DNA of 57,226 nt from a virus. Taxonomy: Duplodnaviria; Heunggongvirae; Uroviricota; Caudoviricetes. The DNA is taken from IMG/VR virus record IMGVR_UViG_3300025896_000022; one strand, written 5' to 3'. Shown one piece after another: positions 1,277 to 47,095 of this stretch. The translations under genes and the position numbers were made by a program. The first letter of the stretch is position 1. Each line of letters opens with the position of its first letter. The notes under the pieces were generated by a model. The model made no database searches, had not been told where the DNA came from, and was given only the letters and a program-made list of their open reading frames with translations.

Positions 1277-4200
1277 ATGGCTGAGAATACAGAATTAGAT
1301 ACAACTACATTAGAGTCTACTGATACAAATCAAACTCCTGATTTTCAATCATTAATGGCATCTAGTAAACCAGAACAAACTAATCAATTAAATATTCAAC
1401 CAACTCCACCTGAATCAAAAGATCCATTAGGTGATGCAATGCGATATACTAGATATGTTGCAAGAGAAGATTTAAAAAATAAAATAAATCCTCCACAATC
1501 AATTGGTGATGAGTTCACTTATGAAAAAGGTTTTGGTATTAAAACATTAGATGCTGATAGTATTGCTAATTTTACTCAACAAGAAAATTATAATCCTGAA
1601 GGTTTTAATCCTGAAGATTCAACAAATTATGAAAGATTTGCTGCAAATGAAACTTGGGGTACTGCTCTTGCAAAAGGATTTGATTCTATGAGTAGTAAAT
1701 TTGGTTCTGCTTTTAAAGAAAACTTTGTAGGATATGGTAGAATAGGTTCTGCTATCATGAATATGGATTTTGCACAACTTATGCCATCTGAAGATGAAAT
1801 GATGGTGCAATATTACAAAGATCAAAAAGATGCGCAAAAAAACTTTGTATTTGAAAAACCTGAAAATGAAGATAGTTTATTTTCAAAAAGAACTGTATCT
1901 GAATTTATAGGCAGTAGTGGTTTTATGTTAGGAACATTTGGAGCAATGTCATTAGAAATTGCAGCAGATGTTTTAATTACTGGTTTAACCATTCCTGAAG
2001 GTGGAGAAGGAGCATTATCATTTATTCCTACTGCATCCAAAATAGGTGCAGGATTTTCTAGAATGATGGGTAAAGAAGCAGTTGAAGTTGGTGCAAAAGA
2101 TGCAGCAGTTAATATTGCAAAAAATACAAATTTTGCATCAGAAGCTGCGCAAGGTTTTAATTTAGGTAACAAGTCAATTGAAGAAATTAGATTGTTAAAT
2201 AAAATTGGTGAAGCATCAACTATTGCAAATGCATCTGGTTCTGTTGCACGTCAAGCAATGAATGAAACATTTAATGTATTTAGTGGTAATATTTCTGGTA
2301 TATTAAAATCAAAATCAATTGCTGAAATGTCTGGCAATATTGCGAGAGGATTACCATTAATTGGTACTGGTATTAGATATGGTGAAAAAGTTGCAGCAGG
2401 TGTAGAAGCAGGATTATCTACTGGTAAACTTGTTGGTATGGGTGCACAAGGTCTTAGACGTGTTGCACAAGAATTAAATATGTCTGCAACAGAAGCATCT
2501 TTTGAAGCAGTATCTTCATATGGTGATACATTAAATAAACTTGTTGAAGATCACAAGAATAATAATGATGGTCAAAATCCTGACCAAGCACAATTTGAAA
2601 ACATGAAACGTACAGCAATGCTTTCTAGTTCTTCAAATTATAAAACTAATATGGCAATTTTATTGGCAACTAATAAGTTAGAATTTGGTAACATGTTTAC
2701 TAAATTCATGCCAGCTAATAGAACAATGCGTGAACTTATTGAAGCAACAAAAGATAATTTATTACTTGTTGAATCAAAAGGTTTAAAGAAATTTTATAAA
2801 AAAGGATTTGCTGGTGCATACGGTGCTATTGGACAAGTAGCAAAAGACTTTGGTAAAAAAGAAGCAACTAAACAAGTAGGTAAAGCATTTTTTAAAGACA
2901 TAACACAATTTGAATTAGTAGAAGGATTGCAAGAAAACTTGCAAGATATTTCTTCTAATGGATGGAAAGATTACTATGTTGGACAATATCAAAAATCACA
3001 TTCAACATTATCAGATTCATTTGGTAAATCATTTGAAGATGAGTTTGGCAAACAAGGATTAAAAACTTTTTTAATGGGTGCACTTACTGGTACTATTGTT
3101 AGATTACCAGTTCATGCAACTACAAAAGCACTTGAACATTTTTCTGATAGTTTTACTGCAAGACAATATTCTAAAACTCCAGGTGAAAATCCTATTGAAA
3201 ATGTCAAAAAACAATTTGATAAAGATATTGAAACATTAAACACCTTTTTTAAACAAGCAGAAGAAAGAAATTTTAAACATAAAATAATAAACTTTACTAA
3301 TCAAGTACAAGAAGGTCAAAATCAAACTGAAGCAGCTGCAAAAGGTTTAGTATATGAATTTGAAAATAGTAGAGATAATGCATTAGCATCTGCAATATCA
3401 GCAGCAAAAAGAACTGACTCAATTGATGTATTACAAAGAGCAGTAAAAGAAATGGGTACTGATATGACAAATGAAGATTTTGAAAAATCATTTGGAGTAA
3501 AACTTGAAGAAACTAAATATGCAACAGCACAGGATTTTTCAAATAAGTTATCAAGAGATATTAAAAAGTACTCAGATATTTCTGATGGATTAAGAACAAA
3601 AGTTAAAAATTTCTCAGAGCCTACATTATATACTCCTGGAACTAAAGAATATTATACTGCAGTAATTGCAAGATCTGCACAAGAAGATGCTATACATACA
3701 ATAGCAATGAATGCAATTAAAGGTGATATGACTGCAGAACGTGCACATAAAGTGTCACAAGAATTATTAAGTAATAAACATATAGCAAATAGTTCTGATT
3801 ATGTTGTACGTATTTTAACTGATCCAAAAATTCTTAATGATGAATTAGGAAATATAATGGCAGATTTAAAAATTGCAGAAGTTAATATAAAAGAAAATAC
3901 TGATCCAAAACTTGCAAAAAAATTAAAAAAACAAGTTGAAGAAAAAGAAAAAGAATATGACGCATTAGTAGAATGGCAAACTTACTTTAGTAATAGAGAT
4001 GATATGTCTATTGCATTAAATGCAGAAGGTGAAATTGAAACTAAATCAAATATTGTATTAGATACTTTTGTTGGTAAAAGAATAGATAAAAAGCAAATTA
4101 TAACCAATGAAAATGGTGAAGAAATTGACCAAGTTGATACAACATTTGATACACATGCAAAAGAAGTTATTAAAACATTTAGAACTTTATTAAACATAAA

Positions 4201-6040
4201 AAATACACAAGCAGGTATTGACATGCAAATTTCACATGTTGAAATGAAAGATGTTCATCAAAAACTTGTTGATTATATGAAACTTGATAAAGATACAAAA
4301 GATTATATGGGTGCTGTTGATGTACTTATGAACCCTGATAATTTTAAACATGCTGTTAGTAAAATGTCTGATGGTAAAATGAAATATCAAGTTATTTCAT
4401 GGTTATCAATTTTTGAAGATAAAATTACAGAATCTATTTTTGGTGAAGAAGGATTAATTAACGCACTTAAATCTACTGATGTAAATTTAAATCCTTTAGA
4501 AATTTTTCTTTTACATGAAGAAATGGGTAAAGCAGTTTATCAAAATGAAAATTATAAAAATTTAATTACTGTATCTTTAGATCCAAATCTTGGAATTAAT
4601 AATGCAGAATATACACGAAAGTTAATTGATAATTTACAAAAAGATATTACTGCAAAATTTACTGAATTAACTAAAAGATATGCTCCATCAGAATATGAAA
4701 ATGATATTACTAATGAGGAATATGATGCAATAGTTGCTACTGGTAAAATAGAAACTATTAGAGAACAATTACTTATAGATAAAATTGCAAGAGGAGAAGC
4801 AGAACTTGGACCAAATGAATTAAAAATTATTAATTCAGAAAAGTTTAAAGAAGAAATAGAAAACAAAGTTGCAATAGCAAAACAAAACTTACCTAATGCA
4901 CAAGAAAATGTACCAAACACATTTGTTGATCAAGATGGTAAATGGGGAGTTCTTGCACCTGGAGGTGAAGTTATTAATGAAGGATATAACACTGAAGAAG
5001 AAGCTGTTGCTGCTGCACAAGCAGAAACAAATACTTCTGTTGCACCTATACATGTAGTAACTGAAACAACACCTGGTCAAGAATATGCAGGATTATCTGA
5101 AAAGGAATTAAAACACAAACTAGATGCTAATATAGAAGACTATTCTTTTGCTGTTGAAACTGATGGTACTCAAGAAGAATTAAATCAATTACTTGCTGAA
5201 AGAGCATTAATACTTGCTGAAATAAATAAATTTTCAAATACAACACCTACAACAAATACACCAGAAGCAGCACCAATAGTTTCTACACCAGAAGAAGTAA
5301 CACCAGAAACAATAAAACCTGAAGTAATAACACCAGTTACACCTGCTGTTTCATCATCAGTAACTGATGAAGAATTTACAGGTCAAGATGATACAGACCA
5401 AATTACTGCATATTTAAATAGTATAGGTCAATTTGTTGTTGAACCAAATAATGTAGAAGGATTTGATGTAAAAGATAGTTCTGATAATATTGTAGAAACT
5501 GTACCAACAGAAGAAAAAGCAAATGAAATTGCTACTAGTGCAACATTAACAAGAGAAAATATTGATTTTATTAACAAGTATGTTGATGAAGGTATAAAAA
5601 TGTTTGGTGGTGAACCATCAACTTTAATGTATCAAAACATGCAATCACGTGGTAATCGTGCAATGAAATTATATAATACTAAAAAAGGTACTGAATTTAA
5701 AACACTTAAAGAATTTTATAGTACTATTGATGGTAAAAATAGTCTTGATGGAATACGTGAATCAGTTATAACTGGTAAAGGAATTAAATACAAAAATAAA
5801 AAAGTATCTATAGAAAAACCTGTTACTGAAACACAATCTGATCTGTTTGATGTAGTTAATGTACCTAATGTATTATCTGTTAAACTTGCTGCAATTGAGT
5901 TACTAAATTCTGAACTAAATGATTTTAAAACAAAAACAGAAGAAAGTTCAAAAGAAATTAGTAAATTTGTAAAGGAAGGTATTGTAACAGAATCTTCTAT
6001 TATCGAACAATTAAAAGATGCAGTTGCTTGTTTCAAGTAA
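1277..6040 (+). CDS. Giant putative virion-ejected (cargo) protein, 1587 aa
   Basis: Long ORF directly before the virion RNAP gene, as in crAss-like phages. It has Gly/Ala-rich hydrophobic stretches (FIGSSGFMLGTFGAMSLEIAADVLITGL; FLMGALTGTIVRLPV), a Pro/Thr/Glu linker near the C-terminus, and a single Cys at residue -3. Confidence 0.7.
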   Translation: MAENTELDTTTLESTDTNQTPDFQSLMASSKPEQTNQLNIQPTPPESKDPLGDAMRYTRYVAREDLKNKINPPQSIGDEFTYEKGFGIKTLDADSIANFTQQENYNPEGFNPEDSTNYERFAANETWGTALAKGFDSMSSKFGSAFKENFVGYGRIGSAIMNMDFAQLMPSEDEMMVQYYKDQKDAQKNFVFEKPENEDSLFSKRTVSEFIGSSGFMLGTFGAMSLEIAADVLITGLTIPEGGEGALSFIPTASKIGAGFSRMMGKEAVEVGAKDAAVNIAKNTNFASEAAQGFNLGNKSIEEIRLLNKIGEASTIANASGSVARQAMNETFNVFSGNISGILKSKSIAEMSGNIARGLPLIGTGIRYGEKVAAGVEAGLSTGKLVGMGAQGLRRVAQELNMSATEASFEAVSSYGDTLNKLVEDHKNNNDGQNPDQAQFENMKRTAMLSSSSNYKTNMAILLATNKLEFGNMFTKFMPANRTMRELIEATKDNLLLVESKGLKKFYKKGFAGAYGAIGQVAKDFGKKEATKQVGKAFFKDITQFELVEGLQENLQDISSNGWKDYYVGQYQKSHSTLSDSFGKSFEDEFGKQGLKTFLMGALTGTIVRLPVHATTKALEHFSDSFTARQYSKTPGENPIENVKKQFDKDIETLNTFFKQAEERNFKHKIINFTNQVQEGQNQTEAAAKGLVYEFENSRDNALASAISAAKRTDSIDVLQRAVKEMGTDMTNEDFEKSFGVKLEETKYATAQDFSNKLSRDIKKYSDISDGLRTKVKNFSEPTLYTPGTKEYYTAVIARSAQEDAIHTIAMNAIKGDMTAERAHKVSQELLSNKHIANSSDYVVRILTDPKILNDELGNIMADLKIAEVNIKENTDPKLAKKLKKQVEEKEKEYDALVEWQTYFSNRDDMSIALNAEGEIETKSNIVLDTFVGKRIDKKQIITNENGEEIDQVDTTFDTHAKEVIKTFRTLLNIKNTQAGIDMQISHVEMKDVHQKLVDYMKLDKDTKDYMGAVDVLMNPDNFKHAVSKMSDGKMKYQVISWLSIFEDKITESIFGEEGLINALKSTDVNLNPLEIFLLHEEMGKAVYQNENYKNLITVSLDPNLGINNAEYTRKLIDNLQKDITAKFTELTKRYAPSEYENDITNEEYDAIVATGKIETIREQLLIDKIARGEAELGPNELKIINSEKFKEEIENKVAIAKQNLPNAQENVPNTFVDQDGKWGVLAPGGEVINEGYNTEEEAVAAAQAETNTSVAPIHVVTETTPGQEYAGLSEKELKHKLDANIEDYSFAVETDGTQEELNQLLAERALILAEINKFSNTTPTTNTPEAAPIVSTPEEVTPETIKPEVITPVTPAVSSSVTDEEFTGQDDTDQITAYLNSIGQFVVEPNNVEGFDVKDSSDNIVETVPTEEKANEIATSATLTRENIDFINKYVDEGIKMFGGEPSTLMYQNMQSRGNRAMKLYNTKKGTEFKTLKEFYSTIDGKNSLDGIRESVITGKGIKYKNKKVSIEKPVTETQSDLFDVVNVPNVLSVKLAAIELLNSELNDFKTKTEESSKEISKFVKEGIVTESSIIEQLKDAVACFK

Positions 6041-6057
6041 TTTAAAAAATCATTCTT

Positions 6058-9000
6058 ATGGCAAAATGTGAATTATCAACTGAGAAGTACATTTCAGTTG
6101 TAAAAAATCTAATTAAATTAAATCCAAGTGAATATAAAAACTTTGACAAAACTGCAGAGTTTATTTTAAAAAGTGGTCTTTCTAATTATGAAAAATCACT
6201 TTCTTTATTTTCTATTGCTGAAATTTATATAGGTCTTCATGGTTTAGATAAAAGTTTTTATACAATAGGAAAGGCAAATAAAATTGTTGATGCTCAGATA
6301 TTATTAGAAGATACTGATGAATTTGTTTCAATTGTATCTGACTTATATAAAGTTAAAAAAACTCCAAAAGTAAAAATTGAATCTATTGAAAAAATGATTA
6401 ATGATTTGTCTTCAAAGACAGTTGTTACTCCTAATGATTTAACTGGTACAAATGGTGTATTAACAGCAATTAAAAATTATTTTAATACAATTGCATTTGA
6501 TGATGAGACAATAAGACAAGGTCATATAGACAATGTATCTGCACAATTAAAATCTATATTACGTGAATTAAATACATCAGATGCTTATAAAGATTTATTA
6601 TTAAAATCTGTTGATGCAACTATATCATCATTAACTAAAATTTCTCCATTTATTTCTTTACGTGATATTGCTGATCTTGCTGAACTAAATAATCAACTTG
6701 TTACTCTTGTCAATGGTCAAATGATTGAAGCAGTACCAAGACCTGATGGTTTATATATTATTGATGAACTAGGTAATGAACAAAGACTTGCAGAAGAAAA
6801 TTTTATTGCAAGTAAAGATGCGCGTAATGATGATTATTCTAATAGTAATAATGGCAAACAAGAATTTTTTGAAGATACAATATTATCTAACTTTAAAATT
6901 AAACCTCTTGAAAATGAAGTATTTAAAAGAGAAGCAATAATTGCAAAACTTAAAAAAATGGGTGATGCTGTTACTGCTGGTATTAAAGTACATGCAGTAA
7001 AGATTAGCACTGTTGGTGATGAAAGATTACAAAGAATACATGATATTGCAAATGATCCAAAATATAAAGGTTTAGCAAATAGAACTTATGAAACTTTTGA
7101 AAATGAAACTCAAGTTAACTATTTAAAATCTACTCCTAATGGAACTGTTATAACAGTTGCTAGACCAAAACAATCTGAAAGTAAATTTGTACTTGTGGGT
7201 GAAATTATTGGATCTGGTGAAAAGTTTTATTTGTATCCATTAGATAACTATGTTTTTTTAAATAGTAACAATACAACACAGCAAATAGATTTTACAAATC
7301 CAGTTCATTTAGAAATGGTAAAAGAACATTCTATTAAAAGAACTAGTGAAGGTGTTACTGAGTTAACACGAAATGATTTAGAAACATTAAAGAATACTTA
7401 TAATTTACATAATATATTTAAAGAAAATTTAAATACTTTTTTATCTGATAAATTTAATGATGAAACATCATCAGTTGATGTATCAGAACAATTCTTTTCA
7501 CAATATAGTATTAATTCTCAAAGAGTTGGTGACACTATAATTCAAAATTTAGCAGATCTAATTGATACTGATAAATCTTTATCAAGAAAGTTAACTATTG
7601 TTACTGTTGATACATTTGGAAAAACTATAAAAGAAGAAGAAAGAAATCTTGTTTTTATGTTTACTAAATTTAATGATTATAAAGATGCATCTGGAAATTA
7701 TAAACCAAAAGATGAACAAAATAAATTTCAATTAGTAAATTTATTAGATGGTAATGAAAGAATTAAAATAATAAATGCTGAAGGAGAAGAAATTGATACT
7801 GTAACACAACAAGAATATTTAGATAATCATTTTGATTCATCTATAAAAATGAATGATAATTATATAAAAGAAAAAGTATTTGGTGGTAAATTTTATGAAA
7901 ATCAAAATCATATAATTATTAGATTTAATAATAATAAAACATATGGTTATAAAATTGTCAAACCAGTTTATTTCTTAGAACAAACACAAGGTTTTGCTAC
8001 ATTTTTAAATACATTAACTAATGTATTAACTGCACCAGATAAATCAAGTCAATTAAGAACTTTTAATAAACAGCAATTTAAATTTGCAAACTTTTCTTCT
8101 ATTTCAGGAAAAGTTGAACTTTTTACAAATTTTACAGTAGATCAAAAAGGTAATTTACAAATAGAAATCAGACCTTCAAATATTAAAGAAGGTAGTAAAT
8201 ATGGATTTATATCAAAATTACCTGGTGCTAAATCTGCATTTAATTTTTCACTTGCTGAAAATGAAAAAGATTTAATTAAAGACAATGCAAAGACTAAAGA
8301 TTTAATATCTAAAGTTGTTGCAGAAAATATTATATTTTCTAAATTAGATTTAAATAAATTAAAAGATGTAACTAAATTTTACTCATTACTTAATCAACTT
8401 TCAAAAGATAATAAACCTTCTGAGAATGTTGTCAATTTAATAGATGCAATAGAAACACAACAAAATAATTTTTCTAAATTACTTAATGAAAAAGTAATAG
8501 AAAAAATGCTTAAAGTTGGTGCATTATATCCAGGATTTATAGAAAATTTTAATAGAGATTACCCAAATCCAAAACACTTAATTCTTGATATAAAAGAAGA
8601 TGGTAAAGAAATACCACGTATTATTTTTGCTGATAAAAATGAATCTCAAGCAAAAAAAGATTATATAAAAAGTGCAAGTAGTTTAGAATTACACGATGTG
8701 CCACAAAAGAAATTAGTTATTACATCTAAATCTCCTGTTAATACGGTTACAAAAATTGCTAATGTACCTCTTGCTGAAACAACAGAACATCCAATAGAAA
8801 ATATTTCAGTATCTAAACCAACATTGTATGAACAAATGTTTGGTAAAGAAACTATTGCTGAAGAAGAAACAGATTTGTCAGATGATATTCCAGAAATAGA
8901 TTTATTTTCAATTAGTAATGGTGCTGTTCAAACTGAAACTCAAGCAGAAAGAGAAAATGCAGTTCAGTGGTTACAAAATAATTTACCTCAATTTGAAATT

Positions 9001-12000
9001 AGTCAAGAAGAATTATCTACTATAATAGACTTGTCTAAAATTGATGGTAATGTACTTGGTTTATTTAAAGATAGAGTAATTCATTTAAATAATGAAATAC
9101 TTTCTAAAGGTGTTGTGTATCATGAAGCATTTCATGGTGTATTTCGTTACCTAATGACTCCAGAACAACAATCTAAATTAATTGAACAGGTAACATCAAA
9201 TGTAAAAAATAATAAGTTATTTACTGAATCTGCATTAAAAGCATTTGCAAGTGAAAGAAACTATATTTATGATTATGAAAAAATGAAAGAACTACAAGCA
9301 GAAGAAATTCTTGCTGATGGTTTTCAAAATCATATGATTAAAAACACAAAACCAAAAGGTTTACTTGAACAACTATATTCATTATTAAAAAAATTAATTG
9401 ACATGTTTATTAAACATGGAAATGTTATTGATAGTACTTATAAAAATATTCAAAAAGGTGCATATTCAAAAGTTCAAATTCAATCAGAAATTTATGAGGG
9501 ACAAACAGCATATGCATTAATTCCTGGATTAAAATTAATTGAACCAAATAATAAAAATATATCTGGTGTAAGTCAAAGACAATCAACATTACAAAAAGAT
9601 GAACAAAATCAGTTAGTTTACATGGTATCTAAATATGTTATTGAAGATACATCAGGTAAAACTTTTGATGAAAAATTTGAAAATTCAAGACATCTTATTT
9701 TAAAGCAGGTTTATAATTTAGATCAAATAATTAATAATAAAGAAAATAAAAAATTTACAAGAGATGAAATTGTAAAAGAATTTGGTAATTTATATTCTAA
9801 TTATAGATTTATGCTTGGTGCAAGAACATTAGGTGAAACTATTTATGATGTAAATGTATCTGGTATTTCTAAATTTGATAAAAAAATATTACCAAATAAA
9901 ATCAAACAATATAAAGATAAATCTTTAGATAATGAGCTAGGTCAAGAATCATTAGAAGTACTTAAAAAACTTGTTAAAGAAAAAACAAGAGAATTGTATT
10001 CCATGTTAGATGGTGTGGGAAATACGATAAGTAAAGATACATTAGCAAAAGAATTATCTGGTGCAAATGAATTTAAATCACAAGTTAATGATGATGCTGA
10101 AAATGATGAAGAATTATCTGATGATGTAAATACTGAAGAAGAATTTGGTCAGCATAACAGATTAGATTCTGCACCAAGACAAGTAAGAAGATTTCTTGCT
10201 ATTGTTGATTATAATAAAAAGGATGCAAAAACTGGTATAACAGTGCCAAGAGTTATAAATGGCGAGTCTATATTTGGTACATTGCTTAAAATTACTTCTG
10301 ATGTAAAAGTTGATCAAATAATTAATCATATTAGAGTAACAGCAAATACTTATCGCGAAGATGGTAACTTTGAAGCTGCTGGTGATTTACAAGCAATTTA
10401 TGATAAAATTCATTCATATACAGATATGGATGAAAATGGTAATCCTGCAACTAATAAAGAATTATATAATATGTTTAAAGATGTACTTCATGGTACAGAA
10501 ACAAATTATATAATGAGTTATGTTACTTTGACAACAGGTACATTTGAAGAAGAAGGAAATAATATTTCTAGTTTTACATTATCTGATAGAGTAATGCAAG
10601 CAGATATAGTAAATAAAAGACGTAATTTAATATCTTCAATGATTACTACACATGCAAAAAAACATACTGATGAAGATTATTTAATTGCAGCAAAAAGATT
10701 AATTGATTTATCAACTAAAATTATTGATACTCCTGTTTTAATGGGTAGTAGTAAATTAGCAAATGATACATTAGAAACATTAACATTTGATTTATATAAT
10801 GCATTTAATGATGTAGGTATGACATTACCAAAATCATTAATTAAAATGTCATTATTAGCAATTGATAAAATAAATAATAATAATAATGCATTAACTAATG
10901 TAAATAAAAATACATTAGATCATTATGATACAAATAGATCATTAATTCTTGAAGGTGACTATTTACAAAAAGATTATTTTAGAGATATTAAAGCAATTTA
11001 TAAAACTGTAATTGATGAATCTATATCATCAAATAATTTTGGTAAAATGCTTGATGATAAAAATAAAACATTAAATAGATTTTTTAGTATAACTAATAAA
11101 TTTACAAAATATATTATCAAGTATGATGCAACTGATTTACCAAGTGTATTTAGAAATGCTGCTGGTAAACCAGTATACAGATATACTAAATATACTCCTT
11201 TGCATACAATTGCTCAGTCAATTAGACAAGAGGGTTTACTTGACACATTTAAAAAAGATCGATACTACAATGACTTTTTAGAATCATTTTATTCTGATAA
11301 TCCGTTATTTAGTGATTTATTAAAAGGTTCAAATACTAAACAAGCAAAAGTTGCAAAGTTATTAATGGATAACATGAGTGTATCTTTATTTGGTGGTATT
11401 GCACAGTTTAATAATCAAACATATAAAGATGGTAAAACTTTTGGTAAATTAGATGACCAATCACTTCATATTATGAGTATATTGTCTTTTTTACAAAGAA
11501 GTAATATATCATCAACTGAAACTATTATAGATGAAGATGGTAATGTAACTACACCAAAGACTACTATACAAACATACATGCGTTCTTTTGATACATTAGA
11601 AGCATCACAAACTAACTTTTTAATCACAGCATTATATCAACAATATGCTGATACTAAAGGTATTGTAAAAAATAGTAACAATCATTATAAAATTGTAGAT
11701 GATCTTGAGGCAAAAGTAAAACAAGAGTTTAATAGAATTAAAAAAGAATGGAATAGAAGAACTGAAAGCAAAACTAATTATGATAATGGTACTTCTAATA
11801 AACTTGTTCCAAACTACAATGCTATATTAGACAAAACAGATAAAACAAAAGCTATTGTAGAATCTAAAAATAATAAAGAATTTAGAGCATATAATTTTAA
11901 TGTGTTACCATACTTTTTTTCAGCACCTGAAAATGAATTATTTACAAATAGTTTAATTCAATTAGCAAAAGATAACACTGTAAACTTTGAAGACTTAGAT

Positions 12001-15000
12001 GAAAATATTTTATCTGAACTACGTGATGGTTTAAATAACTATGCACAAAAAGAATTAAACATTTATATTGATAAATTAAAAGATTTAGGTGTTGTAAAAG
12101 AACACGAAGAAACTGTTAAAGCAATTAAAAAAGACACAACTACTGGTGCAGTTATATTGGAAAATGGTAATGCTGTTGTTACAGAAACTAAACAACCTAG
12201 TATTAAATATTTAACTTCAAATTTAATTGCAGACACATTAAAAATAGATTATGAAACTCCTATGAGTCTTTCTAATGTTTATGCAAAAACTAAAGAAAAT
12301 TATAATTTTAGAGGTGATAAAGAACAAAAAGCAAATATTGAAGGATTACTTGCAGATCATTTTTTTAATAACTGGTATAACTCTTTAAATACAAATGAAA
12401 TTTTTACTGGTGATAGAGCATTAAATGTAAAAGATGGAATTGATGCAACTAAACGTAACAAAAAGTTTCTTGCAACTGGTAGTACAATGAAAGAAGGATT
12501 TCACAGAGTTGCATATTTAAATACAATTGAAGGTTATGTTAATAATGAATATCCAGAATATGGTCCTTATTATTCAGCATCAGAAGTTTTAAGTGATTTT
12601 AAAATAACTGACCCATCGATAAAAAAATACATATATGAAAATTATAATGCAAATGATAGTGACATTTATGAAATATTTGATGGACAAAGTATATCTTCAT
12701 TATTTCATCAAGCAGATATGAATGATTCTTTAGGAAGACTTACTCCTAAGATATTAAAATCTATTATTGCAAAACATTATCGTAAATTGACTGAAGAAGA
12801 AGTACGCAATATGGAGAAAAACAAAATTGTAAATAATCCAAAGAAAACTGTTACTGCTTCTCGTAATATATATCACAAATTATCTGAAATATATATTGAT
12901 AGAAATTATGTAAGTAGATTAATTATACCTGCAGGTTCAACAAAAGAACAAGTATATGAACAATTACATTCATATTATACAACTATTTATGCAACAAGAA
13001 AAGAAATACAAGAATATTCTAAAATTAATAAAGATACAAAATCAAATGATTTAGATTCTGCTATTGCAGATTTAGAAAAATATATTCAAAATACGTATAC
13101 TGATATTCATAAGTTTTATAAACCATTAAAACATAGAGTTAAACTACATAATATGTTAAACTCTATGGAATATCATAATGTTGATCAATTAATGGATACA
13201 ACTGCATCTAAAAATGCTACAATGCTTCCTGTTGATTATTTTGCACATGAAAATAATGGTGATTATCTTCCGTTAAATTTATCTTCTATTGAAGTAAACA
13301 ATGAAGATAAATATCTTCAAGTAGAAACTTCTGGTGTTCACGATACAGCAAGATTTTCTGTACAAGGAAAAATATTAATTGCTGCAGATTTACAACATAT
13401 AGAAGAACTTGCTAATAAAAGACATGAAGCAGCAGGTACAACTATGTCATCTACTGAAAGAAAAGCAATGAATGATATTGGTAATGTACTTGTTAAGTAT
13501 CAAGAATCTTTATTTGATATTGCAGATTCTAATTTGCAATCTCTTAAACATTTTTTAAGAAAAGGTGAGAACTTTGAATTAGGTAAAATCTTTAATTTAA
13601 TTAGAGAAAATCTTGAGTCACAAAATGCACCTGAGTCAATGTTAAAATTATTTAGTGTTGATAATTCTGGTAAACCTGTTCACAATGCTAACTTACCTGG
13701 AATAAGAAGCATGCTAGAGTATTATTTCTTTTCATTATATAGTAAACATGTAACAGATGAAAGAGGTTCAGGATTTAAAAATATTCATGTGTCTTCATTT
13801 GGATACAATGTATTAGAAGATGAGTATGGTAATGTTATTACAACTGAAGAATATCAAAATAATCCAGATGCATATCCAAATGTAAAAGATAGACCACTTA
13901 CTGTTCATATTGAAAATATATATAATGATGCAGGAGAAGTTATTAATAAAAGATATTTAGTTGAATGTATTTTACCAAAACAATTCTTTAAAAATGAACA
14001 ACATGAAAAATTCTATTTAGACAACTTAACAGAGATGTTTGCTCTTCGTATACCAACTGAAGATAAACGTTCAATGATTGCTTTAAAAGTAGTTGATTAT
14101 GTAGATAGTTCTAACTTAAATACAATTGTAGTACCACAATTTATTCATTTACTTTCTGGTTCTGATTTTGATATTGATTCATTATATGGTCAAACATACG
14201 CACACTATGTAAATGTAATTGGAAACTATAATAAATTTGGTGAATATGACTCATACGCATCTTCTGATAAAGGAAAGTTTATTGAGTTTTTACATTATAA
14301 AATGGAAGATGAAGATTTAAAACCATTAGTAAAAGCAAAAAGAAAAGAAATTATAAATTCAAAATCATTTGAACCAAGTGCAAATACACTTGAGATCATG
14401 TATGGATTAGGTTTTAATGAAGCTGATTACTTGTATATAAAACAAAATGATTATTTTAAAAATGTAAATACTGATGATAATTTATTATCAAATGAAATTG
14501 ATCAATTAAGAGATTCTAAAGAAATTGCTAAACAAGCATTTATTCAAGCAAAAGAAGACAATGAAATTGATTCATCTGATTATACTGCAAAGAAAAATAA
14601 AGAAATATTTGGTAAAATAGATTACGATGTAAAAGTTAAATTAGAAGATAAATTTTGGTTACAAAAATTTGTAAAAGGTGCATTACGTGTTGAAGCAGCA
14701 TTACAAGTTTTTGAGAAATATGGTTTACCAGTTGATCAAAAGAATTTTGATAAAAATATTGTAAATCATTTATCTGTATTGCCAATACATCAAAATAAAA
14801 ACTTAAAAGCAAAAATAGATATACTGTCTAATGAGTCTGTATTTAAGAATTTATATATACATGAAAGATCTTCTGTTGAAGCATTTGCTGCTATTGCAAA
14901 AGCTTTTGGTATTGATTTAGATAATTTTGGAATTAAAACAGATCCAAATACTATTACTTCTCTTGTAAATTCTAAATCATTAGGTTCTTCATATAAAGAT

Positions 15001-17898
15001 GGTATTGGTATTACTGCATCATTACAAAAGTTTTTAGCACTTGCTAGTCAATATGGATTAGAATTAAATGGTGATAATATTATATGGAAATATAAAAGTA
15101 ATAAAGTAGATAATTTAGGAAACAAAAAAGAAATAGATAATTTATTTTCAAAATTTGGTTCTATAAATGTTAATGGTGATCGTGTAATTGAAATCAATGG
15201 TAATATACTTGGTATGTTTGCAGATGGAATGAAAAAACCTATCCCTGCTGCATTGCAAATGAATGAAGTTAATGCTGGTATTACTCTTGCAATGATTGGA
15301 GTAGGATTAGATCCAGCATTTGCATTTGGTTTTAACTTTATTCCTGAAATTAAAAAAGCAATATATAATATTCAAGCATCACGTTTTGCAATTAGTGATT
15401 CTACATCAAGTGAATACAAGTTTTTAAATAATGAACTTTCCAATGTTATGAAATCTTTTGTTGAAGATAATGGAGGTAGAGTATTACTTAAAGAACTTGT
15501 CGATGCAAACTTAATCACACCAGAGTCACATGTATTTAAAATTCAAATTAACAAACAACATTTGATGATTGATTTTGCTGCAAATAAACTTGATGAATAT
15601 AAACTTCAAAATAATACATTAACAGTTAATGAAATTGGATTTGATGTTAGTTCTGTTGTAGGAGATGTAAAAACTGAATTGTCAAGTGAAGCACAAAAAC
15701 TTATATTATTACAATTATACAAAGAACAATCGCAACAAGCATGGAGTTTAAGAAATGCTGGTTCTATAGTAGACTTGTATAAAAAACTTAATCCTTCATT
15801 AGTATCGTTTGATAAATTAATGAAAAACATAAATGAACTTAAAGATGGTACATCTATATTTACTGCTGAATCAACTGATAAATTATTTACAAATAAACAA
15901 GTATGGGTTCCATTAAAAAAAGCAATTGATGATTTAAATGAACAATCGGTAATATTTTTAGAAAGAACATCTTTTTTTAAACCAATTGCAAATACATTTG
16001 GCACTGTATTTACTGATCCGTCAAATATTGCAAGAACTATTACAAGTTTTATTGGTATACGTAAATATCAAATGAATCAACATAAAAATAGTGTAGGTAC
16101 AGATCCAATTGCACAAGCAAATTTTGATTTGGATAATGCACAACTTAAAGAAGTGTTTACAGCAGATTATTTATTTAATAATACTTTAGAAGAAAAATTG
16201 GATGCATTAAAAAACAAACATCCTAAAAATAAATTTTTACAATATTTAAAACCTGCTAATAATAAAACAGTTATATTAAATGAAAATAATAAACCAGTTA
16301 CTGAGAAAACTTTGCAAATGGTTAGTAAAGCAAAAATTGCTGGTGATTTAGCAAATGATATAGTTGATGATGCAAATAATTTATACAGAGATGAAACTTT
16401 ATTTATGAAAGAACTATTTTATCATGAATTAGCAATAACAGGTTTGCAATATAAATCTGGTTCATTCTTGCAATATTTACCATCTGAACTTCAAATACCT
16501 ATATCTGAAAACATAACTGAGTTTATTACTGCAATTGAAAATACAAAAGGTAATAAAAAAGAACTTGTTAATGTACTTAGAGAATATATTAGTTCTGATG
16601 AAACTAAAACAAATGAAGATGTATATAAATTATTTGATGAACTATTTGTGTTAATGGCGTTTAATGCATCTAAAGAAGTTGGTAATAAAAAAATCAAACA
16701 AGTATCTAAAATATCATTTAGTGAAGCAGAAGGTTTTGAATCTGGTATAATGAAAAAACTCAAGTTTAGCACAACTGATTCTAAAGAAAGAGTTGAAATT
16801 GCAAATAAAGTTGTTGGAAATATACTTGGATTAAATATTTTAAAATCTGGAAAAAGTTTTACTTTATCTGATAAATTAGGTGCTGTACCATTAGAAGAAA
16901 TTACTATTAATATGAAAGGTGCAGATGCAATGCCTGAAATGTCTAATGATGTTGCTATTGAAATTGGTAAAAAATTAAACATACTTAAAGACAAAGATGA
17001 TAAAAATAAATACAAGTTTCCATTGCTTTTAAAAATTGGTGCAACTACTTATTTATTACAAGGTATTGATAATGAAATAGATAACAAAAGTTTTGGTAAA
17101 TCTATTATTGATTCTATTGCAGGTGTTGGTGAATATAAAACAGTAGGTAATGCTGCAAAATATGTTGCATTACCAAAAGAACTTACAAGTGGAACTATTA
17201 ATCCAATAGGATATAATACAAGTGAATTAAAACGTTATACTGATTTGATAAATAGAAAAATTAAATTACCTGTTGTAAAAGAATTTGATCTTGGAGAAGC
17301 AATGAGTGAAGGTTTAACTGCAGATATGTTTGAAGACTATTCTGTTAAACAAGCATCACCAATTAATGTTGCAATAAGTGAAAACAAAAAAGAATTTGTA
17401 GATACTGTTACATATACTCCACAAGGTAAAGAAACTCAAACATATACAATTAAAGATGGTAATATTTTTAATTCTAAAAATGTGGAGGTATTTAAAACAG
17501 ATAGTATAGATAGAAATAAAATTCTTGCAAATCTTGATGTAAAAATAGGTAGAGGTGTTGTTGTAACACATAAAGATGCAAAATATGTAGTGTCATTATC
17601 TAATGGTACAATTACATCAGTAACTTCTGGTAAAATAATGCAATGGCAAGAAAATAATGGTGATAGAAAAGCAATACTTGATTTAGCAGGAATTGGTAAC
17701 GCAGAACCACTTTCAAAATTAGAACTTGATATTCAAAATATTAATGTTACCTTTGATATGGTAAAACATTTTTATGATCAGAGTGCTACTGGTAAATTAT
17801 TTGATGCTTACTCTACTGAGTTTGCTGCATATGCTGCTAATCTGAAAACTACTGGAATGACAAACAATGAAATTATTGAAAAACTTAAATGTTTATAA
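6058..17898 (+). CDS. Virion-associated single-chain two-barrel RNA polymerase (crAss-like) with N-terminal zincin-like domain, 3946 aa
   Basis: Catalytic-type motif LRIPTEDKRS...TIVVP...SGSDFDIDSL (DFDID at 14164-14178, as in phi14:2 gp66). IFDGQS resembles the beta-like DG motif. HEAFH (9121-9135) plus downstream EEILAD form a zincin metalloprotease signature. Confidence 0.9.
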   Translation: MAKCELSTEKYISVVKNLIKLNPSEYKNFDKTAEFILKSGLSNYEKSLSLFSIAEIYIGLHGLDKSFYTIGKANKIVDAQILLEDTDEFVSIVSDLYKVKKTPKVKIESIEKMINDLSSKTVVTPNDLTGTNGVLTAIKNYFNTIAFDDETIRQGHIDNVSAQLKSILRELNTSDAYKDLLLKSVDATISSLTKISPFISLRDIADLAELNNQLVTLVNGQMIEAVPRPDGLYIIDELGNEQRLAEENFIASKDARNDDYSNSNNGKQEFFEDTILSNFKIKPLENEVFKREAIIAKLKKMGDAVTAGIKVHAVKISTVGDERLQRIHDIANDPKYKGLANRTYETFENETQVNYLKSTPNGTVITVARPKQSESKFVLVGEIIGSGEKFYLYPLDNYVFLNSNNTTQQIDFTNPVHLEMVKEHSIKRTSEGVTELTRNDLETLKNTYNLHNIFKENLNTFLSDKFNDETSSVDVSEQFFSQYSINSQRVGDTIIQNLADLIDTDKSLSRKLTIVTVDTFGKTIKEEERNLVFMFTKFNDYKDASGNYKPKDEQNKFQLVNLLDGNERIKIINAEGEEIDTVTQQEYLDNHFDSSIKMNDNYIKEKVFGGKFYENQNHIIIRFNNNKTYGYKIVKPVYFLEQTQGFATFLNTLTNVLTAPDKSSQLRTFNKQQFKFANFSSISGKVELFTNFTVDQKGNLQIEIRPSNIKEGSKYGFISKLPGAKSAFNFSLAENEKDLIKDNAKTKDLISKVVAENIIFSKLDLNKLKDVTKFYSLLNQLSKDNKPSENVVNLIDAIETQQNNFSKLLNEKVIEKMLKVGALYPGFIENFNRDYPNPKHLILDIKEDGKEIPRIIFADKNESQAKKDYIKSASSLELHDVPQKKLVITSKSPVNTVTKIANVPLAETTEHPIENISVSKPTLYEQMFGKETIAEEETDLSDDIPEIDLFSISNGAVQTETQAERENAVQWLQNNLPQFEISQEELSTIIDLSKIDGNVLGLFKDRVIHLNNEILSKGVVYHEAFHGVFRYLMTPEQQSKLIEQVTSNVKNNKLFTESALKAFASERNYIYDYEKMKELQAEEILADGFQNHMIKNTKPKGLLEQLYSLLKKLIDMFIKHGNVIDSTYKNIQKGAYSKVQIQSEIYEGQTAYALIPGLKLIEPNNKNISGVSQRQSTLQKDEQNQLVYMVSKYVIEDTSGKTFDEKFENSRHLILKQVYNLDQIINNKENKKFTRDEIVKEFGNLYSNYRFMLGARTLGETIYDVNVSGISKFDKKILPNKIKQYKDKSLDNELGQESLEVLKKLVKEKTRELYSMLDGVGNTISKDTLAKELSGANEFKSQVNDDAENDEELSDDVNTEEEFGQHNRLDSAPRQVRRFLAIVDYNKKDAKTGITVPRVINGESIFGTLLKITSDVKVDQIINHIRVTANTYREDGNFEAAGDLQAIYDKIHSYTDMDENGNPATNKELYNMFKDVLHGTETNYIMSYVTLTTGTFEEEGNNISSFTLSDRVMQADIVNKRRNLISSMITTHAKKHTDEDYLIAAKRLIDLSTKIIDTPVLMGSSKLANDTLETLTFDLYNAFNDVGMTLPKSLIKMSLLAIDKINNNNNALTNVNKNTLDHYDTNRSLILEGDYLQKDYFRDIKAIYKTVIDESISSNNFGKMLDDKNKTLNRFFSITNKFTKYIIKYDATDLPSVFRNAAGKPVYRYTKYTPLHTIAQSIRQEGLLDTFKKDRYYNDFLESFYSDNPLFSDLLKGSNTKQAKVAKLLMDNMSVSLFGGIAQFNNQTYKDGKTFGKLDDQSLHIMSILSFLQRSNISSTETIIDEDGNVTTPKTTIQTYMRSFDTLEASQTNFLITALYQQYADTKGIVKNSNNHYKIVDDLEAKVKQEFNRIKKEWNRRTESKTNYDNGTSNKLVPNYNAILDKTDKTKAIVESKNNKEFRAYNFNVLPYFFSAPENELFTNSLIQLAKDNTVNFEDLDENILSELRDGLNNYAQKELNIYIDKLKDLGVVKEHEETVKAIKKDTTTGAVILENGNAVVTETKQPSIKYLTSNLIADTLKIDYETPMSLSNVYAKTKENYNFRGDKEQKANIEGLLADHFFNNWYNSLNTNEIFTGDRALNVKDGIDATKRNKKFLATGSTMKEGFHRVAYLNTIEGYVNNEYPEYGPYYSASEVLSDFKITDPSIKKYIYENYNANDSDIYEIFDGQSISSLFHQADMNDSLGRLTPKILKSIIAKHYRKLTEEEVRNMEKNKIVNNPKKTVTASRNIYHKLSEIYIDRNYVSRLIIPAGSTKEQVYEQLHSYYTTIYATRKEIQEYSKINKDTKSNDLDSAIADLEKYIQNTYTDIHKFYKPLKHRVKLHNMLNSMEYHNVDQLMDTTASKNATMLPVDYFAHENNGDYLPLNLSSIEVNNEDKYLQVETSGVHDTARFSVQGKILIAADLQHIEELANKRHEAAGTTMSSTERKAMNDIGNVLVKYQESLFDIADSNLQSLKHFLRKGENFELGKIFNLIRENLESQNAPESMLKLFSVDNSGKPVHNANLPGIRSMLEYYFFSLYSKHVTDERGSGFKNIHVSSFGYNVLEDEYGNVITTEEYQNNPDAYPNVKDRPLTVHIENIYNDAGEVINKRYLVECILPKQFFKNEQHEKFYLDNLTEMFALRIPTEDKRSMIALKVVDYVDSSNLNTIVVPQFIHLLSGSDFDIDSLYGQTYAHYVNVIGNYNKFGEYDSYASSDKGKFIEFLHYKMEDEDLKPLVKAKRKEIINSKSFEPSANTLEIMYGLGFNEADYLYIKQNDYFKNVNTDDNLLSNEIDQLRDSKEIAKQAFIQAKEDNEIDSSDYTAKKNKEIFGKIDYDVKVKLEDKFWLQKFVKGALRVEAALQVFEKYGLPVDQKNFDKNIVNHLSVLPIHQNKNLKAKIDILSNESVFKNLYIHERSSVEAFAAIAKAFGIDLDNFGIKTDPNTITSLVNSKSLGSSYKDGIGITASLQKFLALASQYGLELNGDNIIWKYKSNKVDNLGNKKEIDNLFSKFGSINVNGDRVIEINGNILGMFADGMKKPIPAALQMNEVNAGITLAMIGVGLDPAFAFGFNFIPEIKKAIYNIQASRFAISDSTSSEYKFLNNELSNVMKSFVEDNGGRVLLKELVDANLITPESHVFKIQINKQHLMIDFAANKLDEYKLQNNTLTVNEIGFDVSSVVGDVKTELSSEAQKLILLQLYKEQSQQAWSLRNAGSIVDLYKKLNPSLVSFDKLMKNINELKDGTSIFTAESTDKLFTNKQVWVPLKKAIDDLNEQSVIFLERTSFFKPIANTFGTVFTDPSNIARTITSFIGIRKYQMNQHKNSVGTDPIAQANFDLDNAQLKEVFTADYLFNNTLEEKLDALKNKHPKNKFLQYLKPANNKTVILNENNKPVTEKTLQMVSKAKIAGDLANDIVDDANNLYRDETLFMKELFYHELAITGLQYKSGSFLQYLPSELQIPISENITEFITAIENTKGNKKELVNVLREYISSDETKTNEDVYKLFDELFVLMAFNASKEVGNKKIKQVSKISFSEAEGFESGIMKKLKFSTTDSKERVEIANKVVGNILGLNILKSGKSFTLSDKLGAVPLEEITINMKGADAMPEMSNDVAIEIGKKLNILKDKDDKNKYKFPLLLKIGATTYLLQGIDNEIDNKSFGKSIIDSIAGVGEYKTVGNAAKYVALPKELTSGTINPIGYNTSELKRYTDLINRKIKLPVVKEFDLGEAMSEGLTADMFEDYSVKQASPINVAISENKKEFVDTVTYTPQGKETQTYTIKDGNIFNSKNVEVFKTDSIDRNKILANLDVKIGRGVVVTHKDAKYVVSLSNGTITSVTSGKIMQWQENNGDRKAILDLAGIGNAEPLSKLELDIQNINVTFDMVKHFYDQSATGKLFDAYSTEFAAYAANLKTTGMTNNEIIEKLKCL

Positions 17899-17901
17899 GA
17901 C

Positions 17902-20900
17902 ATGACAAATTGCATAAATATTAATGATCCGTTATTTAAAGAATTAGTTGCTGCATTTAATGGTAATGAAGCACTTGCAAGAACTGCTTGCACATTAAAC
18001 GAAGATGTTATACCATCTGTTGATGAAGCAAAAGTTCTTATTGCTAATATGAAAATAGAAGAAAATGATGAACGACATGTTCGTCATTCTGATCATTTCA
18101 AATTAGAAAGAACAAAAGACCAATATGTAGTTTTACAAAACATAAGTATATTTGCTAATGATTCACAACGTGCTGCAATATCAAAACTTGTCAAAAACAA
18201 TCAAGAATATCAAGAATTTCTGCAAAAAAATATTGATTTAAGAGATGCAGGTAAAAATACATTACCTTCATATTCAGTAACTTCATTTATTGGTTCATCT
18301 GATTTTAAAGGTGATCAAACTAAATATGAAGCATTTAAATTGTTTGGTACATTTATGCATGATGTTTTAGAAAAAGCACAAATAGAAGCATTGAAAAAAA
18401 GTGAGTCTATTGATGCAATATTATCTGAAGAATTTTTCAACAAAACATATGAAAAATATTTAGAAAAAAATCCATTTTACATAGAAGAGTTATCTAAAGA
18501 AAAGATATTTGATATGGCACAACGTGTTGCAAAACATGTGTCAATAAATAAAGATGAAGGTTATTTAATATTGCCAGAGATTACACTTGCTGGAAAAGAT
18601 ACTCATGGTAATTTTATTGTAGGTAGATTAGATTTACTTTTAATTAGTAATACTGGTAAAGTAAAAGTATTTGATTTTAAAACAAAAAAAGTACACAACA
18701 TGGTGTACAATAATGCTTTTAATCAACAGGTAATTGATAAAGATAGAGCATTTGTCAATCTTGCATCAACCCAATATGTTGTAAAAGATAAACCAGGTAT
18801 GGCTGATTCACTTAAAAAAGTAAACTTAAGTAGGACAGCATATGATAACTGGACTTTACAATTAAAAGCATATGAAAACATGCTAGGTCAAATAGGTCTA
18901 GTAGCAGAAGATTCTAAAATTGTTGCATTAATGTATCAAACAGATGCAAATAATAAATTCTTAGGTGATGTATTGCATATATTTCAAGGTAATAATTACT
19001 GGGATTATGCTACACATGCATCTGTTCCTGGAGATAATGGATATTGGAAAACTGATCCATTCAGAACAACAGAGAGGATTAATGAATATAGAGATGCAAT
19101 TGACATAGAAATTCCTATTGGTGATAAAGAAATTGAAGATGAATTAAAAAAGAATTTTCAAAACTTAGAATTTACTCCAACAGAAGATGAAAACAAAAAG
19201 TTAATTGATGCAATTAAAAGTGAATATGATAAACAAATCAAAGAAGTTTATGATAGAATAAATGAATTAAAATCTCAAGGTAAAGACACTGAACAATTAC
19301 ATGAATTACTCAATGTTAGAAAATCTACTTTAATTACTTTTAAACAATACATAGATAGAGTTTCAGATACTGACTTAGGTTATGAAAGAAACTTTTTTAA
19401 TATACTAGCTGCAACTGAAGAAGATTTAAAAAAAATATCTAATTTGTCAGAAGTAGCAATTCAATCTTTTAGAAAAGGTACATTAGAGTTTTCTAATAAA
19501 GATGTTACTCAAATAAATGAATCATTTTCAAGATCAAAAGGTCTTAATGACATAATTGATGTATTGAAAAGTATTATTAATGACGCTGAGAAAAATCCAG
19601 AAAATGATATTTCACCAAGTAGTCCTGTAAGACAAAAGTTATATGAATTAGAAATGAGTCATTTAACTATTGAAGCAAATTTTAGAGAAGCATCAGTATT
19701 AGCATTAGTTAAAATTGCAATGACTCCAGGTGAATATGTATATAATAAAGTTAGTGAACAAACTCGTGAAGCATTAGAACCTAAGATTGCTAAATTAGAA
19801 GAAGAACTTGCTAATATGAAATTAGGTAAAGCTGCTAATATATTTCAAAGTGTAAAAGGAAGTTTAATATCATTTATGTCAAAAGATTTTAAACAAAAAA
19901 TTAAAGATAAAGTTGGAGGAGGAGAACTTGGTAATCAGTTATTAGAAAATATACAACGTGCTGAATTAGAGTTAATTAGATTGAAAGAATATGCAGCAAC
20001 AGGGTTAGAATATAATATTGAGTCATTAAAAAAATATGTAACAGCTGTAACTGATCCAGAGTCACAAATATATATTGGTTCTCAAGATATTTATAATAGT
20101 ACATCTATTTTTTCAGGATTATTATTAGATAAAGGTATTGCAACTGCTTCCAATAGTGATTTATTTTTGTCATCAATGGTTCAAATGTATAAAAATGCTG
20201 GTGCAAAAGCTATACATAGTATTCAAAATAGTTTAGTTGCTATTCAATTTGATAAATCAAGAGATTCATTATTAAAAAGATTTACTGTTGAACAATTAAA
20301 TGATGAAATTTCTGAATGGAGAGAATATACTGTTACTAATAAAACAACAGGTGAAAAAGAAACTAAAAGAAGTTTAAATTTTGTTAAAGTATCTAGTAAT
20401 GATTATCAAAACACATTTAAAGAACATAGTGATAAGTTACAAGAATATAATACTGAACTTCGTAATTTAGAAGCAGAAGCAAATAAAAAGTTTAATACGC
20501 CAGAATATCAAAGTGCTAAACAAAATTTACTTGACAAACGTAAAAAAAAAGAAACATATAATACAGAATATATTAAATGGTTAATAGAAAATTCATCATT
20601 ACCATTTAATGAAACTTTTTATAAACTACAAGCATTGATGCCTGAAGAAATTAGAAATGAACTTCAGGAAAAGTATTTTGAAATACAACAAATTACTTAT
20701 GATGTAGGTAAAGGTAATGAGATATTACTTGAAGATTATGATTTTGATAGACTCAAAGATTTAGAAGATGACATTAGAGTATTAAGAGAAAAAGCAAAAA
20801 AAATAAATCCAGATTATGCAACATACATGGAGGAATTTAATAATCTTTTTGAATTTGATACAAATCATGCATTTTATGAAAGAAGAGAAAAAAATGCTAT

Positions 20901-46684: not shown

Positions 46685-47095
46685 TTATATTCTGTTTTGT
46701 GAAAATTTTAATTCTTTTGCTTTTATTGGATTATTTTCAATCCAGTTATGGCATGACCTACATAGTGGAATCCATGTAGACACATCATTTTGATATTCAT
46801 GTCTACCTTTGGTATGATGAACATCTGTTGCAACTATTGCGCATTCATGCAATCTTGCTTTACATGCTTTATTGTTATCATCTTGAAAAAACTTATTTCT
46901 CAATACAGTATACAATTGATCTTGTATACTTTTTTTGTCAGATTTTGGTTTTATTGGTGATGGAATTTTTTTTGGAAGCGGAGTCAAGTTGTCCTTTAAC
47001 CAACATTGTCTACAATATTTATTGCCATTGTGGTTTTTCCATATAACTTGTTCAGTTTCGCAACTGCGACAAATCTTTTTTTTTACTTCGATCAT
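46685..47095 (-). CDS. HNH endonuclease-like protein with N-terminal Zn finger
   Basis: CRSC...CRQC, then C.ARLHEC...DVHH...PLCRSCHNWIE. Confidence 0.75.
   Translation of the reverse strand: MIEVKKKICRSCETEQVIWKNHNGNKYCRQCWLKDNLTPLPKKIPSPIKPKSDKKSIQDQLYTVLRNKFFQDDNNKACKARLHECAIVATDVHHTKGRHEYQNDVSTWIPLCRSCHNWIENNPIKAKELKFSQNRI

Follow-up and report, generated by a model that had tools for sequence, protein, structure and literature searches.

Here, we describe three consecutive genes, designated A, B and C, in a 57,226-nucleotide stretch of viral DNA (Caudoviricetes; IMG/VR virus record IMGVR_UViG_3300025896_000022), which is referred to in its full length as the window. The genes code for three giant proteins that contain very few cysteine residues, and more than half of these are positioned at the protein ends that face one another in gene order. 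The features of the locus are as follows.

1277..6040, plus strand: gene A, coding for 1587 amino acids (aa); first member of the proposed chain
5903..6037, plus strand: C-terminal end module of A, approximately the last 45 residues, conserved in the clade; Cys1585 at 6029-6031
6058..17898, plus strand: gene B, 3946 aa; middle member, with a zincin-like region and a predicted virion RNA polymerase (RNAP) core
6058..6192, plus strand: N-terminal end module of B, approximately the first 45 residues; Cys4 at 6067-6069
8950-9489, plus strand: zincin-like region of B, residues 965-1144, alignable with the C-terminal part of crAss001 gp47
9121..9135, plus strand: HEAFH motif of B (HExxH, zincin-like), residue 1022
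14164..14178, plus strand: DFDID motif of B, residue 2703, the catalytic motif of crAss-type virion RNAPs
17689..17712, plus strand: point within B, at approximately residues 3878-3885, where relatives are cut; B of the window is continuous and free of cysteine there
17710..17895, plus strand: C-terminal end module of B, approximately the last 62 residues, helical; Cys3945 at 17890-17892
17902..23790, plus strand: gene C, 1962 aa; last member, with a predicted PD-(D/E)XK nuclease domain at residues 145-267
17902..18060, plus strand: N-terminal end module of C, approximately the first 53 residues; Cys4 at 17911-17913
17989..17991, plus strand: Cys30 of C, a valine in relatives with approximately 70% identity; not part of the feature under study
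18334-18702, plus strand: PD-(D/E)XK domain of C (PF12705, PDDEXK_1; E 2e-6, 28.4 bits versus a cut-off of 22)

Sequence matches identify the A-B-C set as the RNA-polymerase-associated cargo block of a crAss-like phage of approximately 120 kb, which is of freshwater origin according to the contig sources. This assignment is made because B matches crAss001 gp50 and gp47 and p-crAssphage gp44, and C matches crAss001 gp49 and phi14:2 gp076. In local comparisons with named phages, residues 2512-2713 of B aligned with p-crAssphage gp44 (E 2e-12) and residues 2609-2710 with residues 1380-1490 of crAss001 gp50 (E 6e-10), which itself matched the phi14:2 RNAP in two comparisons (E 2e-49 and E 2e-44), as gp44 does too. 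The role of the DFDID motif in catalysis by virion RNAPs is described in a preprint (10.1101/2020.03.07.982082). The phi14:2 RNAP has the motif as well, at residue 1361, and crAss001 gp50 has a DFDVD version of it. The zincin-like region of B aligned with residues 2099-2298 of crAss001 gp47 (E 1.3e-8), which has its own HExxH motif at residue 2157. For C, residues 1490-1755 aligned with residues 921-1173 of crAss001 gp49 (E 3.5e-7) and residues 1488-1834 with phi14:2 gp076 (E 7e-6). The window therefore holds the giant DFDxD protein, the HExxH region and the gp49-like third protein that characterize the Crassvirales cargo block. By colinearity, the cut between crAss001 gp47 and gp50 maps to about residue 1190-1230 of B, and B is therefore a fusion across that boundary.

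An earlier reading of this DNA, made from the sequence alone and referred to here as the original prediction, had described A, B and C as a channel protein, an RNAP and a nuclease, respectively. The motif and the alignments with gp50 and gp44 agree with its assignment of B, as does the predicted PD-(D/E)XK domain with that of C. The description of A as a channel protein is not supported, as A gave no family match and has only one, weakly hydrophobic, stretch. No homologue of A was detected in named phages, and an A profile gave no match to crAss001 gp47, phi14:2 gp078 or p-crAssphage gp45. Searches against PHROGs returned no family for any of the three proteins, and those against Pfam none for A and B and PDDEXK_1 alone for C. 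Pieces of B and C gave no match among the INPHARED phages by megablast and tblastn; the link to named phages in that collection was obtained only with crAss001 gp50 as the query. Neither B nor a profile of its core matched PDB sequences. Presence in the virion, delivery into the host and polymerase activity have been shown only for Cellulophaga phage phi14:2 and Bacteroides phage crAss001 (database records; PMC10172136; 10.1101/2020.03.07.982082), whose virion proteins were identified by mass spectrometry, and for the window proteins these properties are predicted from their homologues.

A contains a single cysteine, residue 1585, which lies at position -3 counted from the C-terminus and is encoded by the TGT at 6029-6031; its N-terminus is free of cysteine. 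B has cysteines at residues 4 (6067-6069), 2637 and 3945 (17890-17892), the last being the penultimate residue, and C at residues 4 (17911-17913), 30 and 1397, with none at its C-terminus. The open reading frames (ORFs), cysteine counts and codon positions of the original prediction were exact to the base. Together, the three proteins contain 7 cysteines in 7495 residues, and the probability of finding four or more of the seven no further than 4 residues from one of the four facing ends is 7.2e-10 (binomial, post hoc), or 3.7e-9 when counted, likewise post hoc, over any of the six ends. The clustering at the facing ends on which the original prediction was built thus stands. Throughout the virion block (96-27152, plus strand) cysteine is rare, with 9 in 8985 residues (0.10%), compared to 1.54% in the remaining window genes.

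To follow these positions in relatives, one search of a large protein collection was performed per protein, with about 120 homologues listed each (A 120, B 120, C 121). A cysteine within the last 10 residues, at -2 or -3, was found in 118 of the 120 homologues of A, and an N-terminal cysteine in none; exactly one cysteine was present in 115. For B, 108/120 homologues carry a cysteine at both ends, and many hold only those two in approximately 4000 residues. C has a cysteine at residues 2-8 in 115/121 homologues, five of the six exceptions being short and evidently truncated gene calls, and a C-terminal cysteine in 0/121; in 69, it is the only one. The first protein of the set therefore has its terminal cysteine at the C-end only, the middle one at both ends and the last one at the N-end only, and the cysteine-free outer ends of the original prediction are seen in the window and in its homologues alike. 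These terminal cysteines persist even in relatives whose most conserved core shows only 25-35% identity, and their sequence context changes entirely by lineage (KCL, DENNC, NPLEC, NCGG, TKC).

When a profile of the B core was used for scanning, 159 loci with flanking genes were obtained, including 43 complete cluster representatives. Interior cysteines make up 0.094% of the residues in these 43 B orthologues, so that a cysteine in a given 10-residue end would be expected in 0.9% of proteins; an N-terminal cysteine at position 3-7 was found in 31/43. The contrast between terminal and internal cysteines anticipated by the original prediction is thus a general property of the orthologues. Among the other 12 representatives, at least the L148-L153 group and L165 have miscalled starts that hide an MSC or MKIYC. 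Nine clusters remain with a cysteine-free B N-terminus, and in these the upstream protein likewise lacks the facing cysteine. In the clade of the core tree that holds human-gut contigs, the RNAP proteins of L098/L174, L163, L166, L170 and L179 have 12-40 interior cysteines and the terminal ones are mostly kept; most JGI and IMG/VR lineages have 0-5 interior cysteines in this protein. The depletion of interior cysteines may be tied to oxic habitats; habitat labels were checked for the contigs named 'human gut' only (L087, L093, L099).

The same rule applies to the homologous cargo of two cultured phages. The three consecutive virion proteins of phi14:2, gp67-gp66-gp65 (gp078-gp077-gp076 in GenBank), of which gp66 is the crystallised virion RNAP, contain four cysteines in 5398 residues: the last residue of the 1797-aa protein, residues 3 and -2 of the 2180-aa RNAP and residue 3 of the 1421-aa protein. 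In crAss001, gp47 has one cysteine at -3, gp50 has cysteines at 5, 1334 and -9, and gp49 has one at 5. As crAss001 gp47 is encoded on the strand opposite gp50-gp49, adjacency of the genes is not required for the rule. The window differs from both phages in that the cuts lie elsewhere, B has approximately 1200 extra N-terminal residues, C has a PD-(D/E)XK domain and A is without a detectable homologue there.

If facing cysteines act together, they should be gained and lost together. At the junction upstream of B, both cysteines are present in 25 clusters, neither in nine and one alone in none, which is the covariation of adjacent termini that the original prediction called for. The core tree requires at least 5-7 changes of state at the B N-terminus. 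In lineages L010 and L011, B (4852 and 4529 aa, respectively) and C (1842 aa) have one cysteine each, facing one another, and in these and related lineages this pair is the only cysteine in approximately 6700 residues. The cysteines are thus paired on two chains, conserved and changing together, as expected of proteins that are tethered by a disulfide.

Additional cuts in the cargo are accompanied by additional cysteines. In nine clusters, a further protein, X (137-946 aa), is encoded between a shortened B, designated B', and C, and contains exactly two cysteines, at N3-6 and C2 (C5 in L167). The last 56-70 residues of X align with the end of window B, and the alignment of B' with window B extends to about residue 3880. 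More specifically, in L033, L036, L037, L044 and L073 the upstream gene aligns up to B 3860-3889 and X from approximately 3877-3891 to 3946 (the match of L037 starts at 3763). The upstream protein ends in ..DENNC and the next one restarts with MKC or MAIKC; as window B is continuous and free of cysteine at this point, the cut in the relatives is flanked by a new cysteine pair.

Conversely, cysteines are missing where cargo genes are fused. L147 is an A-B fusion, in which the A profile matches residues 360-851 (E 1.5e-26) and the only cysteine is at -3; the A profile revealed a fusion in the L147 group only. p-crAssphage gp44 is a known B-C fusion and has no C-terminal cysteine. L083, a B-C fusion of 4256 aa, contains no cysteine at all, and a comparison with its split relative L084 revealed that approximately 54 last residues of B and 53 first residues of C, that is both end modules, are missing. 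This argues that the modules exist for joining the two proteins. In L084, B and C keep their facing cysteines although they are separated by a cysteine-free ORF of 117 codons (L084:11935-12288), whose start and stop codons overlap with those of its neighbours; similar small ORFs without a cysteine pair are found between B and C in L085, L096 and L164.

Around the terminal cysteines, the window proteins and their close relatives share conserved end modules. The C-end of A follows the consensus ..SxKxxKFVExGxVTExSI(I/L)xxL(K/R)xxxxCF(K/S), in which the cysteine holds position -2/-3 even where its context varies, and the N-end of B has the pattern MxxC-x-(I/L)-x-T-x-x-Y-x-x-VV...NFDxxAxF(I/V)L. 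In an alignment of 34 diverse B C-ends, the cysteine is the sole invariant column. The N-end of C has the consensus MxxC(P/I)NxNxPx(W/F)KxLVxAxGxExxA, and each of 23 sequences, some with as little as 23% identity, has the cysteine at position 4. The original prediction had noted that A and B end in a similar helix. The two C-ends do share a short motif, (V/T)T(E/N)xxI(I/L)(E/D)(Q/K)(L/I)(K/R); a profile-profile comparison covered only 12 columns (E = 0.016, probability 2.8%, not significant), and homology of the two modules is therefore not established. The profiles of the B and C N-terminal modules were likewise not significantly similar. In the alignments of the B C-end and the C N-end, no other conserved cysteine or histidine is found near the terminal cysteine.

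Based on these findings, we propose that matched end modules dock consecutive cargo proteins onto one another and that a disulfide between the terminal cysteines staples them into an ordered thread, which is released by reduction in the host. We assign this interpretation a probability of about 0.65. The polarity of the cysteines, their joint loss and their joint gain fit a linear hetero-chain with interacting facing cysteines, and the comparative tests (polarity, co-occurrence, cuts and fusions) came out as expected from the original prediction, in which the facing ends of A, B and C are locked in gene order via their terminal cysteines. A disulfide is the simplest chemistry for a facing cysteine pair; it is also favoured over a metal site because no further cysteines or histidines are conserved near the ends. 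Such bonds are feasible in these particles, as crAss001 virions contain inter-subunit disulfides (PMC10172136).

In this mechanism, A, B and C would behave like one long polyprotein that has been split into separate genes, with each cut bearing matched short end modules, each tipped by one cysteine 1-9 residues from the chain end. The modules would dock non-covalently in the reducing cytoplasm, thereby setting the order A, B, C. In the particle, or upon its release, the neighbouring thiols would be oxidised to a disulfide, and the cargo would become a single covalent thread, almost straight, from which no more than short stubs of a few residues project. As the cysteines are always 1-9 residues from the chain end, whichever module surrounds them, the joint would be almost linear, as is needed for passage through the tail, whose constrictions are under 50 Å and require the cargo to partly unfold (PMC10172136). 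The thread would be packed at a fixed stoichiometry, presumably 1:1:1, and would pass through the tail in a set order, and the reducing host cytoplasm would break the links and free the polymerase and its partners. The scarcity of other cysteines would prevent mispairing.

Several points weigh against this proposal. We infer the bond itself, together with the thread function and the reductive release, from comparative patterns. The phylogenetically independent contrasts for the A/B junction were concordant in 4/4 cases (sign test p = 0.125), which is not significant on its own because there are only four such contrasts. Gut crassviruses live without oxygen, and the crAss001 disulfides were seen in particles purified in air. 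For mass spectrometry, the methods of the crAss001 study list 'R and NR samples', which may be reduced and non-reduced ones. Docking is only weakly suggested by modelling: when the C-terminal 66 residues of B were modelled as a complex with the N-terminal 70 of C, the score was 0.36 and the best control 0.00. The runs share at least 87% of their contacts, with a partner pLDDT of at least 68 and a pLDDT of 77-78 for the B end module. In the benchmark, 58 of 80 solved complexes attained the mark, as did 2 of 110 mismatched pairs; scores of 0.60 or less were obtained for 7 of the 80 solved complexes and for both mismatches that passed. As self-made alignments were used for the prediction, the benchmark counts apply to it only roughly. 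The helices to which the original prediction assigned tail-to-head docking are a feature of this clade and not of the whole order, as the ends of the phi14:2 and crAss001 proteins look like polar tails.

Some lineages also do not fit. B of L163 has no C-terminal cysteine. In L159, a B-like ORF from position 1046 codes for 5642 aa without a cysteine and has no partner gene downstream, which places it outside the simple picture. The L148-L153 group has an N-terminal MSC behind an earlier ATG and neither a C-terminal cysteine nor a C-like gene downstream; its proteins and that of L161 are approximately 4400 aa long. L159 and the L148-L153 group may represent further fusions, homology to C not being established. 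Similarly, the long N-terminal extension of B in the L051 group is not established as an A homologue (23% probability in hhalign with the A profile); neither A, searched by BLAST and phmmer, nor the B N-terminal profile matched the long B proteins. p-crAssphage gp47 (L183:1588-4161, 857 aa), which is encoded upstream of the block, has a single cysteine at -2 and no evident partner. The next protein, gp46 (857 aa), has no cysteine, and gp45 has none at its N-terminus.

Among the alternatives, the one that survives best is that the facing cysteines join the proteins by jointly binding a metal ion (Zn, Fe or Cu) or a small cluster, a chemistry that the original prediction had named as well. This would account for the same polarity, co-occurrence, cut and fusion data, and it would work in a reducing cytoplasm and in the anoxic gut. 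However, it provides only two thiolates per junction with no further conserved cysteine or histidine near either end, and many of the junction ends consist of a few residues of polar tail. We therefore consider a metal bridge unlikely, though worth keeping in mind. Somewhat less probable still is that each terminal cysteine acts independently or with another partner, as a tether to the portal, the capsid interior or the tail, as a redox switch or as an acylation site. Tail and portal-vertex proteins of crAss001 do use disulfides (PMC10172136), and the lone -2 cysteine of p-crAssphage gp47 has no obvious partner. However, independent roles predict neither a first protein with a cysteine at the C-end only nor a last protein with one at the N-end only, nor the joint absence of both sides at the A/B junction (25/9/0), the removal of both cysteines and both modules upon fusion or the two cysteines of each new cut.

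As B has a cysteine at both ends, a ring formed by joining B end to end, or homotypic A-A, B-B and C-C pairs, would be chemically possible. In L010, L011 and their relatives, only the cysteines of the B C-end and the C N-end are kept; the two ends of B are therefore not an obligatory pair. Homotypic pairing also gives no reason for the loss of junction cysteines upon fusion, and we regard bonds of this kind as improbable. Finally, the pattern might have arisen without selection at the protein level, through chance, through composition or through a signal in the nucleotides at the gene junctions, for example for translational coupling or for read-through of the stop codon. The short intergenic gaps and the shared frame of window B and C (TAA and one codon apart) could speak for such an origin, but it is refuted by the homologue counts and the window probability. 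Against it are also the gaps of 1, 2, 3, 9, 15 and more bases in relatives, where the frame is not kept, the varying cysteine position and surrounding codons, and the opposite strand of crAss001 gp47, which leaves it with next to no probability. In the window, B and C are separated by TAA and a single codon (GAC) before the ATG (17896-17904). Read-through of the B stop codon into C was rejected because gap length and frame differ among relatives, and lipoprotein processing was rejected as well, there being no signal peptide and the cysteine lying at residue 3-4.

Elsewhere in the window, several small minus-strand proteins (46685-47095, 54863-55150, 56223-56726) contain 4-6% cysteine, including CxxC pairs; the genes outside the virion block span 29289-56726, and no thioredoxin-like or glutaredoxin-like CxxC motif was found in these other genes. 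A 656-residue protein encoded downstream of A-B-C (25182-27152) gave a sub-threshold match to GH85_C (E 0.004, 18 bits versus a cut-off of 27).

The proposal can be compared with known systems. In the N4-like phages (Schitoviridae), a giant virion RNAP (N4 gp50, DEV gp71) is ejected together with two further proteins (gp51 and gp52; DEV gp72 and gp73), and cysteine is strongly suppressed in the ejected proteins, which has been attributed to their passage through the oxidising periplasm (PMC11445570). In contrast to the window proteins, whose terminal cysteines are conserved, the N4-like proteins are essentially free of cysteine including at their ends, and their polymerase is of another type; as stated above, neither B nor its core profile had a match in the PDB. 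For crassviruses, the phi14:2 preprint points out that some phages carry the three proteins as a fusion, and assumes that it is cleaved. Neither this preprint nor the crAss001 structure paper (PMC10172136), a review from 2023 or an N4 paper from 2026 (PMC13434306) mentions cysteines or disulfides of the cargo, and literature searches found no description of an end-to-end tie of such cargo by terminal cysteines. The proposed tie would bring together two principles that are each known, namely reducible disulfides between chains and docking modules at protein ends, in a manner that we found described nowhere.

Both principles have well-known counterparts. AB toxins such as diphtheria toxin, the clostridial neurotoxins and ricin use a disulfide to tether the translocated enzyme, which is reduced in the target cytosol. 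The proposed cargo would resemble them in that a single disulfide joins a translocated enzyme and its partner through membrane passage and then frees the enzyme. The two chains of these toxins are derived from one nicked precursor or assembled in the endoplasmic reticulum, and their cysteines are not at the chain ends. Toxins form no ordered multi-protein thread, and there is no homology. Docking domains of polyketide synthases (PKS) and nonribosomal peptide synthetases (NRPS) are short, matched C- and N-terminal modules that order separate proteins and are dispensable upon fusion. The matched modules at consecutive ends of the cargo, which are deleted in the natural fusion L083, may be likened to them by analogy. 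PKS/NRPS docking, however, involves no covalent bond and has its role in catalysis instead of in packaging or translocation, and no Pfam docking family was found in A, B or C.

The proposal bears on the question of how giant internal proteins are packaged by podoviruses and then ejected one after another. Among the phages of the human gut, crassviruses are the most abundant. The crAss001 cargo was not resolved by cryo-electron microscopy (PMC10172136), and structures of crassvirus ejection proteins have been called for (PMC13434306). More speculatively, and with somewhat less than even odds in our estimation, Crassvirales cargo as a whole may be a split polyprotein, in which orthogonal end modules and terminal disulfides give a thread of 5000-7500 residues that would be packed as a unit and pulled N- to C-terminus through the tail, with the reducing cytoplasm of the host as the trigger that releases and activates the virion RNAP. 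Cuts could then move freely in evolution, because a peptide bond and a terminal cysteine pair would be interchangeable. If the proposed disulfide-stapled thread is correct, it would provide a simple physical rule for the stoichiometry of the cargo, the order of its ejection and the timed release of the polymerase, and would explain why the cargo proteins are otherwise stripped of cysteine and why the genes of the cargo block are fused and split so often.

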